This document shows positions 31,476 through 42,447 of a stretch of 64,000 nucleotides of DNA, piece by piece. Every line of letters starts with the position of its first letter. Position 1 is the stretch's first letter. The position numbers and the translations under genes were made by a program. The stretch comes from Acidobacteriota bacterium (lineage in GTDB: Bacteria > Acidobacteriota > UBA890 > WLXD01), in the NCBI GenBank assembly GCA_965248695.1, contig CBDFKD010000002.1, forward strand, positions 384,001-448,000, given 5' to 3'. Below the pieces are notes generated by a model that was not told where the DNA came from, made no database searches, and saw only the letters and a list, made by a program, of their open reading frames with translations.

Positions 31476-32213
31476 CTACTTCCTGACCAGGAACATCTCG
31501 TGCACGCCCGGCTCGACTTCGGAGTGCTCGAGGGGTCGCACCACCGCGTCAACGAAGCCCACCTCGGCCAACAACGCCAGCCAATCATCGCGCCAGAAAA
31601 GGCCGCAGATTGCCCGATCGTGCTCGACGCGCACCGTTCCGTCAGCCGTCCGGAGCATGTAGGCCATGTCGTGCGTGTAGCTCGTATCGGTGGGATCGGG
31701 ATCGAAGGTCCACTCGAGATAGCGGAGCGCTCGTCCGTCGCCGTCGTGCCCGCCCTGATCCGTCGACGGCTGGAAGTTGTCGCGCAGGTGATCGGGACAT
31801 ACCAGCATCGCGCCGCCGGGCGCGCAGTGGATAAAGGCCGTCTCCAGGGCCGCCCGGAGGTCCTCCTTAGTCGACATGTAGTCGATGGCATCGTGGATGA
31901 ACACGGCATCGAACTGTCGACCCAGCCGCAGTGTGCGCATGTCGCCCTCGACGTGCTCACACTCCGGATTCAGCGCCCGACTCACCTCCAGCATCCCGGG
32001 AGCGACATCGACCAGCGTCAACTCGAAATGGCTCTTCAGGTGCGAGGCGTTGTTACCGCCCCCGCTACCGAGCTCGAGCACGGTCCGCGGCGCCGATTCG
32101 GTCGCCTCGACCAGGATATGACGGTAGATCTCCGCCTCCTCGGCGTATTCCCGTGGCGCCGATAGCAACGGCCACCACGACGCCAGCTCGTCGTACAGCT
32201 TCGGCAAGCCCAT
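31476..32213 (-). CDS. Class I SAM-dependent methyltransferase
   Basis: VLELGSGGG, GDMR, FDAV. Confidence 0.88.
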   Translation of the reverse strand: MGLPKLYDELASWWPLLSAPREYAEEAEIYRHILVEATESAPRTVLELGSGGGNNASHLKSHFELTLVDVAPGMLEVSRALNPECEHVEGDMRTLRLGRQFDAVFIHDAIDYMSTKEDLRAALETAFIHCAPGGAMLVCPDHLRDNFQPSTDQGGHDGDGRALRYLEWTFDPDPTDTSYTHDMAYMLRTADGTVRVEHDRAICGLFWRDDWLALLAEVGFVDAVVRPLEHSEVEPGVHEMFLVRK

Positions 32214-32227
32214 CGTTTTCGCTGCCA

Positions 32228-32285
32228 CTAGCAGGCCGTGGTGGAAGTGTGGCGGGCCTGGTTGCGACGAGTTGGGGCCAGATGC
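32228..32285. repeat. Truncated MITE left end (58 bp)
   Basis: CTAGCAGGCCGTGGTGGAAGTGTGGCGGGCCTGGTTGCGACGAGTTGGGGCCAGATGC matches the 26671 and 38085 copies. Confidence 0.85.
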
Positions 32286-36582: not shown

Positions 36583-36708
36583 CTTGTGGCGCCGAGCACA
36601 GTGCCGGCATACAAGGCCTCGAGAAACTGCCGAATCTTCTTATTGGTCAGGTAGAAGCCGCTCAACCGCGAATCCACCGTCCGGGACCGGCGCTACTTGA
36701 TTGGCAGG

Positions 36709-37503
36709 TCACGGCTTGTTCGCCCGGAAGTTGATACCGACGGTGCCGAACTCGCTGGCGCTCGATGCTTGTGGAGCACCGTCGAAGACCTCGGCTTTCC
36801 AGGTGATCTCGAAGTCGGTGAACCCTGCAGCGACGACCGTCGCTTCGAGCTCTGCTTCCAGCAGAGCGCCGGCGATTCAGCCGGTCCACAAATCGATCTT
36901 CTGTTTCGCAGCCTCGGACACTTCGCGGTCAACCAGAATATCGCCGATCTGCAGCCGGCCGCCGGGGCGCAGCACGCGATGCATCTCGCCCAGGGTCTTT
37001 TGCTTGTCGGGCGTCAGGTTGAGCACACCGTTGGAGATCACCACGTCGGCCCAGCCGTCGGGCACGGGAATCTCCTTCATGTAGGCCTCGCGAAACTCGA
37101 CGTTGTCGACGCCCGATTCGGCGGCAGCGGCGCGCGCCCGATCGAGCATCGCCGGGGTCATGTCGATGCCGACGACCTGGCCGCCGGGGGCGACCATGCG
37201 AGCCGCAACGAGCGCGTCGATTCCACCGCCCGATCCGACATCCACCACGTTCTCGCCGGAGGCCAGCTCGCCCATGGCAAACGGGTTGCCAGTGCCGGCA
37301 AACGATTCAACGGCCGATTCCGAAACACCTTCGAGCCACGCATCCTTGTAACCCACGATCTCGGTCAGCGGTCGGCCAGTATGGAAGTGGAAACCCTTGC
37401 CCGGATCCTCCGCGACTTCCCTGTACTCGTGCTGGATGGCCCGCCGCAGGGTTTCGGTATCGACATCGATCGCCTGCGCCACGAGTGAACGATCTGCCGG
37501 CAT
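36709..37503 (-). CDS. Putative selenocysteine-containing ArsM-like SAM methyltransferase (UGA at 36877-36879 recoded)
   Basis: VVDVGSGGG, GIDMT, ADVVISN, LRPGG; frame continues after TGA as IAGALLEAEL...RANKP*; SECIS-like hairpin. Confidence 0.85.
36841..36876 (-). promoter_or_regulatory. Bacterial SECIS-like element
   Basis: After UGA: AUCGCCGGC GCUCUGCU-GGA-AGCAGAGC; 8-bp perfect stem with a G-initiated loop 17 nt from UGA. Confidence 0.8.
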
Positions 37504-37567
37504 ATCTCTCCCCCTTCTCTCTCCGCGCAGTGCGGCTTTCGGTCTTTCGGAATGGAGGCTCACCGAG

Positions 37568-38059
37568 CTACAGGCCTTTCGGCTCTCGAAGTCGGCCCGC
37601 GCCCCGCGTCAGCCACGTTAGGCCGAGTCCGACGAGCGCACCGGCTGCCTTCACCAAAGTCCCGTTCGGGAGACCAGCGGTATCATCAGCTCGCAGGAGA
37701 CGCCAAATCACGCCGAACTCACTTTCCCGAACCTCGGAAGCTGTGAGCGGCGACAGTGAGTCTGTTTGGACGAGATGAACCAGGCTCAAGTCACCGAGGA
37801 TGAAGAAGCCCAGCACGGCCACGACGATCCCCTTGTGCGCTGGCGCGACTACATGCGCAGTACAGAGGGCGACCCATGCGTATACGAGGCCTGAAAGGAA
37901 GGCGGACGAATAGACGAGCGCTCCACTCGAACCGCCCGCTCCCGCGGGGTACAGCGAGCCAAGCACGCCCGCTGCCAGAAACCCAGCGATCACCGAGACC
38001 GGGAAAAGAACCGTCCACCGAAGCCACCGTGGTACCTGCTCGATCACTGCTCCAGGCAT
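37568..38059 (-). CDS. Membrane protein, unknown function
   Basis: Hydrophobic ORF with GAGG RBS. Confidence 0.55.
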   Translation of the reverse strand: MPGAVIEQVPRWLRWTVLFPVSVIAGFLAAGVLGSLYPAGAGGSSGALVYSSAFLSGLVYAWVALCTAHVVAPAHKGIVVAVLGFFILGDLSLVHLVQTDSLSPLTASEVRESEFGVIWRLLRADDTAGLPNGTLVKAAGALVGLGLTWLTRGAGRLREPKGL

Positions 38060-38084: not shown

Positions 38085-38363
38085 CTAGTAGGCCGTGGTG
38101 GAAGTGTGGCGGGCCTGGTTGCGACGAGTTGGTGCCAGATGCAAGGCGGCCTGACGCAGGCGATGCCCTAGCCATCGTCGAGGAGGGCCAACGCCGCAGA
38201 TGGCCCCAAATCGCCGCAACCCTTTGGGCGACAGGGGGTTGCGCGTGTATGCTGCGTCGTTCGTCGTCAACGATGGGGTAACCATCGCCTCCTCCTCTCT
38301 CCTTGCCTCCACCTCGCAAGACCCTGTCGCCAGGCCCGCCACACTTCCACCACGGCCTGCTAG
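38085..38363. mobile_element. CTAG-flanked MITE, full copy (279 bp)
   Basis: ~34-bp terminal inverted repeats CTAGTAGGCCGTGGTGGAAGTGTGGCGGGCCTGG / CCAGGCCCGCCACACTTCCACCACGGCCTGCTAG; no transposase. Confidence 0.88.
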
Positions 38364-39820
38364 GCAACGATCTGCGGAATCAGCTCGCCGTGGACATCCG
38401 TGAGCCGCATATCGCGACCGTTGAACCGGTAGGTCAGCTGCTCGTGGTCGAGGCCGAGCAGATGGAGCATCGTGGCGTGCAGATCGTGCACCGAGATCGG
38501 CTGCTGCTCGGCCTTGTAGCCGAACTCGTCGCTGGCGCCGATCACCTGACCACCCTGAATGCCGGCCCCGGCCATCCACATGGTCATCGTTCCCGGGTTG
38601 TGATCGCGACCCAGGCCGCGTTGCGAGATCGGCATGCGGCCAAACTCGCCGTGCCAGACGACCAGTGTCGACTCCAGCAAGCCGCGCGACTCCAGATCGG
38701 TCAGCAAACCGGCAATCGGCAAGTCAGACTCGGCGGCGTGCTGGCGGTGGTTCTCCTCCAGAAACCCGTGCGCGTCCCAGGTGTCGGTGTTCTGCTGACC
38801 GAGGCCACCGTGAAACAGCTGCACGAAGCGAACGCCGCGCTCGACCAGGCGTCGCGCCATCAGACACTGACGACCGAACGGTTCGGTCATTTGGTCGTCG
38901 AGGCCATAGAGCTTGCGGGTCGCCCTGGTCTCGGCTGAGGTGTCGATGGCCTCGGGTGCGCAGCCCTGCATCCGGTAGGCGAGCTCGTACGACGAGATGC
39001 GCGCGGCAAGCTCGGAGCTGCCCGAGTACCTCTCCATGTCGATCTCGTTGAGCTTCGCGAGCGTATCGAGCCGGGCGCGTTGCTCCTCCGCCGACATCGT
39101 CTCGGGACGCTTCAGATCGACGATCGGGTCTCCCGCCGAGCGGAAGACCGTTCCCTGATAGCTTGCCGGCATGAACCCGGCGCTCCAGTCGTTGGGCCCT
39201 CCCAACGGGCCACCTCGGTGGTCGTTCATGACCACGAAGGCGGGCAGGCTCGAGCTCTCCGACCCGAGGCCATACGTCACCCACGCGCCGACACTCGGGA
39301 ACCCCATCCGCAGCTGACCGGTCTGCAGCTCGTAGGTCGCTTGCACATGGTCGTTCGAGCGCCCGTAGACCGAGCGAAGGAACGCGATCTCATCGACCTT
39401 GGCGGCGAGGTTGGGGAATATCTCGGAGACCTCGATGCCGCTCTCGCCGTACTTCTTGAACTCGAACGGGCTCGGCATCAGCGGCCCCGGGAAGCCCTGA
39501 CGCACGATAACGTCACCGTCGATCTTGTCGTGCAACGGCTGTCCGGCGTACTTGTTGAGCGCCGGCTTCGGGTCGAAGGTGTCGACCTGGCTGACGCCGC
39601 CGCTCATGAACAGCGAGATCACCGCACGAGCCCGTGGCGCGAAGTGGGGCGCCCGTTCCGCAAACAGGTTGCCGGCCGCGGGGGCGGCACACTGCTGCGC
39701 CCCCAAGAGCCGCTCGCTTGCCAGCAGCTGGGTGAGCGCCAGCCCGGCGATGCCGCCGCCGGACTGAAAGAGAAAGTCACGACGCGACCAGAAGTTCTTC
39801 TGCTTGCCGCAGCAGCTCAT
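38360..39820 (-). CDS. DUF1501-domain Tat-exported protein
   Basis: SRRDFL, FMSGGVSQVDTFDPKP, RRLVERGVRFVQ, WDAH, GEFGRMP, GRDH. Confidence 0.92.
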   Translation of the reverse strand: MSCCGKQKNFWSRRDFLFQSGGGIAGLALTQLLASERLLGAQQCAAPAAGNLFAERAPHFAPRARAVISLFMSGGVSQVDTFDPKPALNKYAGQPLHDKIDGDVIVRQGFPGPLMPSPFEFKKYGESGIEVSEIFPNLAAKVDEIAFLRSVYGRSNDHVQATYELQTGQLRMGFPSVGAWVTYGLGSESSSLPAFVVMNDHRGGPLGGPNDWSAGFMPASYQGTVFRSAGDPIVDLKRPETMSAEEQRARLDTLAKLNEIDMERYSGSSELAARISSYELAYRMQGCAPEAIDTSAETRATRKLYGLDDQMTEPFGRQCLMARRLVERGVRFVQLFHGGLGQQNTDTWDAHGFLEENHRQHAAESDLPIAGLLTDLESRGLLESTLVVWHGEFGRMPISQRGLGRDHNPGTMTMWMAGAGIQGGQVIGASDEFGYKAEQQPISVHDLHATMLHLLGLDHEQLTYRFNGRDMRLTDVHGELIPQIVA

Positions 39821-39824
39821 CCGA

Positions 39825-42447
39825 TCACCGCAGGTAGAGAAACTCGTTCAGGTTGAACATGACGTGCGCCAGATCAATGAGGGAGCCGTTGTCCACCAGC
39901 TCGAGGGCGATGGCGGACTCCGCGTCGGTGGGCGACCGGGACAGCGCGATTCGGTACGCCAGGTCGATCTGGCTTTCAGGCGTCGCAGGCGCGTGCCGCT
40001 CGATGCGCTCCGCCAGCAGCTCCGCCTGTTTGAGCACGAACGGGTTGTTCAGCAGCGTCAGCGCCTGTGTCGGCACGGTGGAGATATTGCGCGCCGCTGC
40101 GGTGACGTTCGGATCAGGAAGATCGAAGGTCTCGAAGAAGGGAAACGTCAGCGACCGGCGCCGGTAGACGTAGACGCTCCGGCGCCAGGCCGCCGGCCCG
40201 TCGGGCTGGCGTTCCCACTTGCCGTGAAACTGCGAGGCGAGGATTTCCTCGGGTACGTATGGAAATATCGGCCGCCCGCCGACGGTCAGATCGATAGCAC
40301 CGCTGGCGGACATGACGATGTCGCGCACCACTTCCGCCTCGAGGCGACGCAGCCGGAACCTCCACAGCAAGTTGTTGTCGGGATCGTTCGCCTGGTTGTC
40401 GTCGAGGGCGGTGGAATCCGGGTACGCAGACGCCATCTGGTATGCCTTCGACGTCAGCATCAACCGGTGCATCTGCTTGATGCTCCAGCCGGAGCGCACG
40501 AACCGGATCGCCAGCCAATCGAGCAGCTCGGGATGTGTCGGACGATCGCCAACCAGGCCGAAGTTGTCGAGCGTTCTGACGATCCCGCGGCCGAAGTGAT
40601 GGTGCCAGATGCGATTGACGGCGACACGAGCCGTCAACGGGTTGTCGGCCGAGGCGAGCCACCGCGCTAGCGCCAGCCGTCGAGCGGAAGTACGCCCGCT
40701 CGGACGTGGGATCTCGGTGGGCGGATCACCGTAGGTGGCAACCGTCACGAAACCGGGAGCCATTGGAGAGCCCTTGCTATGAGGGTCTCCACGGATCAGG
40801 AAGTGGCTGGGCGGGACCTGGTAGCGCCCCGGCCCTTCGTGCAGAAAACTGCCGGGCTCATCGGGTATGACACGACAGGCTGGACACGACACCGTGTCGT
40901 CGCCGGATCCGTCCGGCGCGTAGCGGTAGTCGCCGTCGGTAACGATCTCTGCCATCGGTGGTTCAGCGGGCCGTTCTTCATCGAGGGAGACGAGACGATC
41001 CGCGAGAGACTGACGCGCCGCGGAATCTTCAGCCGTCAGCGACGCTGCGAGCTCATCTCGGTCGACGCCGATTGTCAGCACCTGCGTTGCAAGGAGCTCC
41101 TCGCCTGGCGTTCGCTCGTCGGCCGACTTGAGCAATACCAGCCGAATGTCCTCGGGGAACCGCTGGAGTTGGAGCTGACGCCGATACGGCGCCTCGATCT
41201 CGCCAATCTGCGCAGTGAGCCCTGCAGCACGGGCCTCGATGTCGCCAGCCTTTCTCAGGTAGGCGGCGGCCTCCGCCGGCGGTAGCAACGGCACCTCGAT
41301 CTCGACATAGCCGAAGATCGACGCCTGCATGCGGTAGTAGTCGCGCTGCAGGATCGGGTCGAACTTGTGGTCGTGGCAACGGGCGCAGTGCACCGTGAGT
41401 CCGAGCACTCCCCTGCCGACCGTGGCGAGCACGTCGTCGAGATAATCGTACCGCCGCTCCGGATTGTCCTTCTCGCGAAACCCAACGCGCGGCCCGGCAC
41501 GCAGAAAGCCCGTGGCGACGAGCGTTTCGTTGGTCGCGTCGTCGAGCTCGTCGCCGGCAATCTGCTCTTCGAGGAACCGATCGTAGGGCTTGTCGGCGTT
41601 GAATGCGTTGATGACGTAGTCGCGGTAGCGCCAGGCGTTGGGGCGGTCTTCGTCAAACTCGAAGCCACTGGTGTCCGCGTACCGCGCCACGTCGAGCCAG
41701 TGTCGGCCCCAGCGCTCACCGTAGTGTGGCGAGGCCAAGAGCCGGTCAATCAGCTGTTCCCAGGCGTCGGGCGCCGGATCGCGGACGAACCCGGCGCGCT
41801 CCTCTGGGGTCGGCAGCAAGCCGATCAGGTCGAGGTAAGCGCGCCGCAACGAGCGTCGACCGGTCGGCCTGCGGCGCCGCCGTCAGACCGCCTGCCTGTC
41901 GCGACTGCTCGAGGAAACGATCGATCGGATTCTCGAAGTCGGGCAACTCGGGCGGCGAAACAGCGACCGGGAGCTGAAAAGCCCAGTACTGCCGGGCGTC
42001 GGGCGGTAGCTCCGAGGTTTCGAGGGCCTCCAGGGCATCGTCCGCGGCGGTGGCCCCACCAGCATCCCAGTGAGCCCCGTTGTCGATCCACTCCCGGACG
42101 GCAGCGATCTCCAGCTCGGTGAGGGAATCCCCCTCCATGGGCATCGCCGGCCCATCGAGACCGGCGATGAAGCGGTAAAGGCGACTCTCGTCGGCCTGCC
42201 CCGGCACGAGGGCCGGGCCCCGCGTCCCGCCCCGGAGCGCCGCCTCGCGGGTACGCAAGTCGAGGTCCGAGGTCTGTACGGCTGCCCCGTGGCAATTCCA
42301 GCAGCTGCGCTCCAGAATCGGCCGAATGCTCGCCGTGAAGGTCGTGCTTGGCGCACTCAGCGCCGCGGACTGCGCCTGGGCCCCGGCAACGCTCGGCAGA
42401 CCACCCAACAGGGCTGCTACCAAGGTCGCTCGGATCGTCATTCTCAT
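39825..42447 (-). pseudogene. Planctomycete cytochrome c + DUF1549 (PSD1) + DUF1553 protein, frameshifted near 41850
   Basis: CWNCH, YWAF..P, GERWGRHWLD, CARCHDHKFD, PTHPELLDWLA; one extra base breaks ADRSTL/RRAYLDL. Confidence 0.85.

Follow-up and report, generated by a model that had tools for sequence, protein, structure and literature searches.

The window analysed here, a stretch of 64,000 nucleotides from an Acidobacteriota bacterium, carries on its reverse strand a gene for a class I S-adenosylmethionine (SAM)-dependent methyltransferase of the ArsM/AS3MT superfamily. Its reading frame meets a TGA after 208 codons and stays open for another 55 before a second TGA closes it, giving a read-through product of 264 residues. 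An initial annotation had proposed that the first TGA encodes selenocysteine (Sec) and that the hairpin directly after it is a bacterial Sec insertion sequence (SECIS). Its coordinates, strand and quoted downstream peptide were all correct on re-reading of the sequence, and translation confirmed both the 55 open codons and the length of the product. The comparisons described below favour the proposal. The Sec machinery of the genome, homologues with TGA or Cys at this codon, and the conservation of the hairpin and of the tail behind it indicate that the gene is very probably Sec-decoded, with UGA codon 209 read as selenocysteine in a 264-residue selenoprotein. Its features are collected in Table 1.

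Table 1. Features of the methyltransferase gene, in positions of the window.
Feature	Position	Strand	Basis
Complete putative selenoprotein gene: 264 codons including Sec209, then the final TGA stop (36709-36711)	36709..37503	-	Translation with TGA as U; related-genome homologues match residues 1-264
Probable ATG start; purine-rich, Shine-Dalgarno-like GGGGGAG upstream at 37514-37508	37501..37503	-	Sequence; same-genus homologues align from residue 1
N-terminal 207 codons after the start codon: SAM-binding core VVDVGSGGGID, HFHTGR motif, Thr71, Gly159	36880..37500	-	Pfam; alignments to ArsM structures and paralogues; invariance in the clade
In-frame TGA, probable selenocysteine 209, codon after ...KIDLWTG	36877..36879	-	Aligns with Cys224 of CmArsM; TGA/Cys in homologues
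55 sense codons after Sec (IAGALLEAELEATVVAAGF...GINFRANKP): last helix and last two beta-strands of the methyltransferase fold	36712..36876	-	AlphaFold2 model; codon-position variability; ArsM alignment
Candidate SECIS helix 1: 8-bp stem GCUCUGCU/AGCAGAGC, loop GGA, beginning 9 nt past the UGA	36849..36867	-	97.5% paired; RNAalifold consensus; frozen synonymous sites; fdhA-like geometry
Second hairpin GCGAC-GGUC-GUCGC, possible accessory recoding part	36830..36843	-	82.6% of cells paired, 5/5 pairs covarying; putative role

An alternative GTG start at 37563 is possible, but it lies outside the homologue matches. Apart from codon 209, TGA is an ordinary stop codon in the window, where it is the commonest stop, terminates 26 of the 42 open reading frames (ORFs) of at least 300 aa, and also closes the methyltransferase gene itself. 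A second Sec at this final TGA, of the kind found in 'UXX-star' type endings, was ruled out by the mixed stops of Sec-form (TGA-bearing) genes, which end in TGA (47), TAG (26) or TAA (11), and by the lack of conservation past them.

Relatives were gathered by a six-frame search of 40 related genomes together with the window's own genome, which is 96% complete (41 in total), and by a scan of one genome per species, from which the best 80 of 547 relatives serve as public loci. The first search returned 16 loci at 60–100% identity, each with exactly one TGA inside the match and always at the identical codon (16/16). Homologues in the related genomes match residues 1 to 264 at 60–92% identity, and the weaker matches, at 45% identity or less, have no TGA inside. 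Among the public loci, TGA occupies the Sec209 codon in 76 of 80, and TGC or TGT in the other four. They come from Acidobacteriota, Gemmatimonadota, several Chloroflexota classes, Actinomycetes/Rubrobacter, Eisenbacteria, Desulfuromonadales, Betaproteobacteria, Nitrospirae, Nitrospinota, Neomarinimicrobiota, Fimbriimonadaceae and SAR324. Neither TAA nor TAG stands at this codon in any of the 96 loci whose DNA was examined (16 related-genome and 80 public), and the frame downstream is open in all of them except two that run off their contigs. In the protein databases, 11 full-length homologues at 61–66% identity carry Cys in the Sec209 column. Such pairing of TGA with Cys among homologues is the standard Sec/Cys signature. 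The expectation that homologues would show Cys or TGA here, with conservation on both flanks, was thus borne out.

A quick maximum-likelihood tree was built from 86 Sec, 15 Cys and 2 'Trp' rows with 4 canonical ArsM rows, and has long outgroup branches. The Cys forms are nested among the Sec forms; parsimony counts at least seven Sec/Cys changes, and well-supported branches force two of them. Because of this nesting, Sec is tentatively suggested to be the older state, ancestral to the clade.

An absence of Sec machinery from the genome had been named in advance as a sign against the proposal. All four components are present above their curated cut-offs: selA (521.8 bits), selB (330.4 bits, or 354.3 counting its C-terminal piece), selD (319.1 bits) and tRNA-Sec (70.2 bits), which ARAGORN calls as tRNA-SeC with anticodon TCA. 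Of the 41 genomes, 37 yielded selA; among the 16 with the TGA form the count is 15, and the one without a match is 69% complete. The window's genome also has two further genes interrupted by a single in-frame TGA, one for a formate dehydrogenase alpha subunit, fdhA (G000:C2:287086-290085, L131; 1315 bits), and the other FdhA-like (G000:C2:253932-254681, L132); both codons stand in the context ...*H. In fdhA, 11 nt separate the TGA from an 8-bp hairpin whose 3-nt loop reads GUC. A separate observation concerns the selD match (G000:C2:1557914-1558828, L011), which lies inside a 794-aa open frame, much longer than a normal SelD, and suggests a fusion to another domain.

The perfect 8-bp hairpin described by the initial annotation, GCUCUGCU-GGA-AGCAGAGC at 36867-36849, was confirmed, and its 9-nt spacer and 8-bp stem place the loop 17 nt past the UGA. 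Pairing and codon statistics were taken over 86 distinct Sec-form sequences. Helix 1 is paired in 97.5% of cells, with variants that are mainly G-U wobbles, and it alone makes up the RNAalifold consensus. In the shuffle test, none of 500 shuffles matched the observed paired fraction or covariation score, and slid registers were 27–60% paired. Synonymous choice within the stem is nearly frozen: Ala213 is GCT in 85 of 85 sequences, Leu214 is CTG in 85 of 86, Leu215 is CTG in 80 of 81, Ala217 is GCA in 74 of 82 and Glu218 is GAG in 83 of 85. The loop codon Glu216 is GAA in 58 and GAG in 17, and four-fold codons flanking the hairpin have codon entropies of 1.3–2.0 bits.

The same contrast appears in the mean minor-allele fractions at codon positions 1, 2 and 3. 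These are 0.172/0.144/0.423 for upstream residues 60–204, 0.032/0.010/0.141 for helix 1 codons 213–219 and 0.116/0.133/0.394 for downstream residues 226–263. The downstream pattern and the third-position value of 0.141 in the stem therefore show that the tail evolves as coding sequence and that the stem is constrained at the RNA level. Both the hairpin and the 55 codons behind it, whose lack of conservation would have spoken for a spurious call, are thus conserved. In Sec forms the corresponding stretch folds at a mean of −12.9 kcal/mol (range −18.0 to −6.3), compared with values from −1.3 to −9.6 kcal/mol for the four DNAs of Cys forms. Cys-form proteins, moreover, vary where the Sec forms are fixed, with AMLESEL, AVLETEL, ALLEPEL and others in place of ALLEAEL.

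A second hairpin begins five nt 3' of helix 1. It is paired in 82.6% of cells, and all five of its pairs are altered on both sides, one of them being GC in 27 sequences and CG in 24; RNAalifold does not predict it. It may be an accessory part of the recoding signal, which would then comprise two hairpins. The optional lower stem UCGC/GCGA of the initial annotation is weak, since in 37 of the 86 sequences one of its four base pairs fails to form, and it competes with the second hairpin at 36843-36830.

Protein and profile searches, run with Cys standing in for Sec209, place the 264-residue product among class I methyltransferase domains in Pfam (Methyltransf_31, 1.5e-31). Its NCBIfam scores are 227 bits for NF041537, 222.8 for NF008823, 206 for NF041536 and 205 for NF047649, all under the respective cut-offs. 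ArsM structures are the best matches in a sequence search of the PDB (5evj, 9.9e-28; 4fr0, 5.4e-25), and their alignments cross the TGA to residues 231–239. An AlphaFold2 model built on a 14-row alignment has a mean predicted local distance difference test score (pLDDT) of 76.7 and a predicted template modelling score (pTM) of 0.79, and a Foldseek search of the PDB with it gives ArsM/AS3MT enzymes for every one of the top 12 hits (TMq 0.63–0.69). Past the Sec codon the model places a helix (216–225) and two strands (229–234 and 258–262), and a 208-residue product would therefore be without the last helix and the last two strands. Codon 209 aligns with the arsenic-binding Cys224 of CmArsM and with the W-x-G-C of canonical ArsM paralogues, bearing out the earlier expectation of a family Cys at this position.

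The surroundings of this residue differ from those of ArsM. In a review of arsenic resistance (PMC6138428), all As(III) methyltransferases are described as having four conserved cysteines, with a metalloid site formed by Cys174 and Cys224 and a disulfide cascade involving Cys44 and Cys72; the mechanism cited there has dimethylarsenite held by Cys224 alone. Canonical paralogues in the related genomes (L039-L042, 40–45% identical) carry CC..., GCGNP, SNCVINL and W-x-G-C, and at those positions the window's clade has GFHFHTGR, GTGNP, SNGVLNL and WTG-U. The HFHTGR motif sits at the site of ArsM's N-terminal cysteines, and Thr71 and Gly159 occupy the positions of Cys72 and Cys174 in alignments to ArsM structures and to the canonical paralogues. 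All four Cys forms have His39, His41, Arg44, Thr71 and Gly159, and each of these five residues occurs in 85 of the 86 Sec forms. The Cys224 position alone of the four is retained, as Sec. No further cysteine is conserved across the 86 Sec forms, and 32 of them, the window's protein included, are free of cysteine altogether. The label 'ArsM-like' given by the initial annotation consequently holds for the fold, as the ArsM/AS3MT matches attest, and does not by itself establish an arsenite function, since the clade is without the other three cysteines.

These substitutions bear on the most serious alternative, that the protein contains Sec but is otherwise an ordinary arsenite methyltransferase detoxifying As(III) in the manner of ArsM. 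Such a function would agree with best matches that are all ArsM/AS3MT (PDB E = 1e-27 and the 12 Foldseek hits), with the alignment of Sec to an arsenic-binding cysteine, with the UxxG 'arsenite methyltransferase' that reviews list among selenoproteins, and with an ArsR-type regulator found within 1.5 kb in 18 of 90 loci. It is nevertheless the less likely function for a clade that has HFH, Thr71 (85/86), Gly159 (85/86) and Sec where the four-Cys enzymes have their Cys174-Cys224 metalloid site and redox pair (PMC6138428), that is Cys-free in 32 of 86 Sec forms, and whose member here scores under the NF008823 cut-off. Canonical four-Cys paralogues, furthermore, coexist in related genomes as a separate branch, split from the window's clade with an SH-like approximate likelihood ratio test (SH-aLRT) value of 99. 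A lone Sec in place of four cysteines, and a score short of the ArsM cut-off, therefore make it possible that the substrate is not arsenite.

Two other explanations concern the decoding itself. Reading of the UGA by a standard tRNA, whether a near-cognate Trp or Cys tRNA or under a code in which TGA is a sense codon, is highly improbable in a genome with complete Sec machinery and a Sec-type fdhA, for a codon that homologues pair with Cys and that precedes a conserved hairpin sharing its geometry with that of fdhA. A TGA-sense code is ruled out by the 26 of 42 long window ORFs that TGA closes, this gene being closed by it as well. Two JGI-called proteins (P0021, P0043) do show Trp in the Sec209 column, but both rows nest among TGA rows in the tree, and their Trp probably reflects a caller that used a TGA=Trp code on those contigs. 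Least probable of all is a true stop with a 208-residue product and a decaying remnant of 55 codons behind it: gene callers report that form and TGA is the window's commonest stop, but the remnant would have to have stayed open in all 96 loci bar the two that run off their contigs, varied in coding fashion (0.116/0.133/0.394), encoded the last helix and two strands of the fold, and never acquired TAA or TAG at the codon.

The short form is nonetheless the one on record. The window's own protein is stored as a 208-residue sequence in a large protein collection, and 104 of the 120 best database matches cover 75–78% of the query, that is, they end at the TGA; the remaining 16 run the full length and have Cys or 'Trp' at this codon. 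The claim that standard pipelines truncate the gene is therefore correct, and the truncation is general.

With Sec decoding as the preferred reading, SelB carrying Sec-tRNA(Sec) would bind the hairpin 9 nt past the UGA and insert Sec, as in the established bacterial pathway; without this step synthesis would end at 208 residues, short of the last helix and two strands. Sec209 would occupy the ArsM Cys224 site, beside the SAM site, and His-x-His, Thr71 and Gly159 stand in place of the remaining three ArsM cysteines. Given this active site, the lone selenolate could bind a soft substrate by a single Se-X bond during its methylation by SAM. Candidate substrates would be an arsenical that already carries methyl groups, dimethylarsenite for example, or a species of selenium, sulfur or tellurium. 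The primary substrate is unlikely to be inorganic As(III), which requires a redox pair as well as two or three thiolates.

Some relatives carry additions that may bear on this chemistry. Among 84 Sec-form genes with a visible end, 48 terminate within about six residues of ...RA.KP, the window's gene among them, and 36 (within L056-L120) carry a C-terminal extension. Of these extensions, 28 contain a Cys as part of the conserved tail motif (D/E)EW...AL..L.C; in 11 of the extended Sec forms this Cys lies 3–4 residues from the end, reminiscent of the NCBIfam 'UXX-star' endings. In one Sec form (L061, 2089-2574) the methyltransferase is joined to a TusA sulfur-carrier domain (30.1 bits against a cut-off of 28.6), and TusA fusions also occur among the Cys forms, in several of them (359-aa database proteins with PF01206). 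In another Sec form (L083, 1315-2163) the open frame extends across a further class I methyltransferase domain, which matches TPMT weakly. These add-ons look like interchangeable partners of the active-site Sec; the window's protein has neither a C-terminal tail nor a fusion partner. The window does contain a second SAM methyltransferase 4.5 kb away (31476-32228, reverse strand), with a Methyltransf_25 domain and a weak NodS match. It was considered as kin of the second domain of L083 and rejected as unrelated.

Put together, these observations allow a tentative picture, possible rather than probable. The clade would be a Sec-ancestral offshoot of ArsM spread over many phyla, with its site rebuilt as His-x-His...Arg/Thr/Gly/Sec. 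A second thiol, if there is any, would come from the interchangeable add-ons (C-terminal Cys tail, TusA or other fused domains). The substrate would be a one-ligand species, for instance dimethylarsenite, or else a compound of selenium or sulfur, and not inorganic arsenite. The recoding signal would possibly comprise two hairpins, and nearly all public copies would be annotated as 208-residue proteins.

Several results weigh against the Sec reading of the gene or against the proposal on its substrate. As a single sequence, the 66-nt stretch tested stands out from shuffles to a modest degree: it folds at −31.9 kcal/mol with z = −2.26, and 7 of 200 shuffles fold equally well. Helix 1 shows double-sided changes in just two of its eight pairs, owing to its high conservation, and an Rfam scan of 36650-36950 gave no match at E values up to 10. 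It is comparative conservation, not single-sequence folding, that lifts the hairpin above chance. Against the curated NF008823 cut-off of 263 bits, the protein itself reaches 222.8 and the six-frame search of the genome 215.5. Relatives were picked by similarity to a Sec form, and the ratio of Sec to Cys among them is therefore biased. As to the substrate, no ars genes lie beside the methyltransferase gene in the window, and conserved neighbours within 1.5 kb of its relatives are sparse, none of them general and the commonest present in 18 of 90 loci.

That commonest neighbour is an ArsR-type helix-turn-helix (HTH) protein, whose representative includes a rhodanese domain; it is followed by major facilitator superfamily proteins (10 loci), rhodanese with metallo-beta-lactamase (7) and OsmC (6). 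Beside some homologues (L075:3-1451, L070:1681-2958) stand an ArsR-type HTH-rhodanese fusion and a rhodanese plus metallo-beta-lactamase protein. This pair resembles persulfide-sensing and detoxifying operons, a possible hint to sulfur or selenium chemistry. In the window itself the neighbours are GNAT, SRPBCC, Nramp-like, membrane-ORF and DUF1501/PSD1 genes. A hydrophobic ORF of 163 aa (37568-38059, reverse strand) with no Pfam match lies directly upstream of the methyltransferase gene; 65 nt separate its end from the start of that gene, and the two may share a transcript. Further upstream, a DUF1501 gene (509 bits) is directly downstream of a PSCyt2/PSD1 (DUF1549/DUF1553) gene at 38360-41849 on the reverse strand. 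Such DUF1501-PSD1 pairs are typical of Planctomycetes-like genomes; here one occurs in a genome of Acidobacteriota type.

The interest of the clade lies in a single selenolate kept where ArsM needs a cysteine pair and a redox pair. A small, Cys-free member such as the window's protein is a test case for what a lone Sec beside SAM methylates, and for whether the name 'arsenite methyltransferase' fits this branch. Its strongly conserved, cross-phylum hairpin is a clean natural data set on the requirements of bacterial SECIS elements. At least a hundred similar database clusters are stored as 208-residue fragments unable to fold, and counts of 'arsM' or of selenoproteins in soil and sediment bacteria will mis-score such truncated copies.

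A comparison with the ArsM/AS3MT enzymes of known structure, CmArsM, CrArsM and human AS3MT (PDB 4fr0, 5evj and 8xt7), shows both the kinship and the departure. The alignment takes in the SAM core and both the D-M-T and the R-L-x-x-S/D motifs, with Sec209 opposite Cys224. The window's protein, in contrast, is without equivalents of Cys44, Cys72 and Cys174, has Sec for Cys, and at 264 aa is shorter than the 321–387 aa chains of those structures.

Comparison with the catalogued selenoproteins gives a similar result. Two reviews of prokaryotic selenoproteomes (PMC13188914, PMC9312934) list 'arsenite methyltransferase' among experimentally verified selenoprotein families, as NF008823/PRK11873 with a UxxG motif and one Sec, credited to Fomenko et al. 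2007. For arsenite S-adenosylmethyltransferase, a 2008 ocean metagenome (GOS) survey counts 8 sequences with Sec and 245 with Cys (PMC2398784). The main text of the BSepDB paper (PMC13326102) makes no reference to methyltransferase. The catalogued family and the window's protein are alike in superfamily, in having a single Sec and in placing UxxG at the C-terminal arsenic-binding Cys position; the Sec motif here, U209-I-A-G212, fits UxxG within an ArsM-type domain. They differ in that the window's protein falls under the NF008823 cut-off and is without the other conserved cysteines, a comparison made by listed motif and domain only. A table in the newer of the two reviews adds three multi-Sec fusions that contain this domain, taken from Haft and Tolstoy 2025, and gives NF041537 (ArsM/AhpD), NF041536 (ArsM/DUF2284) and NF047649 (methyltransferase/UXPK-star) the same UxxG Sec motif (PMC13188914). 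These three models are the top NCBIfam matches to the methyltransferase domain, at 227, 206 and 205 bits against cut-offs of 510, 575 and 460, and thus far below. Unlike the multi-Sec fusions, the window's protein has neither a fused second domain nor a second Sec, and its true stop comes 55 residues past the Sec.

The recoding signal can be set beside the bacterial SECIS of formate dehydrogenase type. In both, the hairpin lies directly 3' of the UGA within the coding sequence and its apical loop begins with G. The fdhA gene of the same genome has the same 8-bp stem and 3-nt loop, 11 nt past its UGA as against 9 nt in the methyltransferase gene. The loops differ, GUC in fdhA and GGA here, and in the methyltransferase gene a second, covarying hairpin follows.

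The family has been listed with UxxG, and the motif here is U-I-A-G; the gene is therefore a rediscovery of a known selenoprotein family in a new genome. The description 'hidden selenoprotein' is apt in that gene callers truncate it, but the family itself has long been listed as a selenoprotein family, since 2007–2008. What is worth recording beside the catalogued enzymes is the peculiarity of the clade, one Sec, no cysteines and an ArsM score below the cut-off, together with the systematic error in its annotation.

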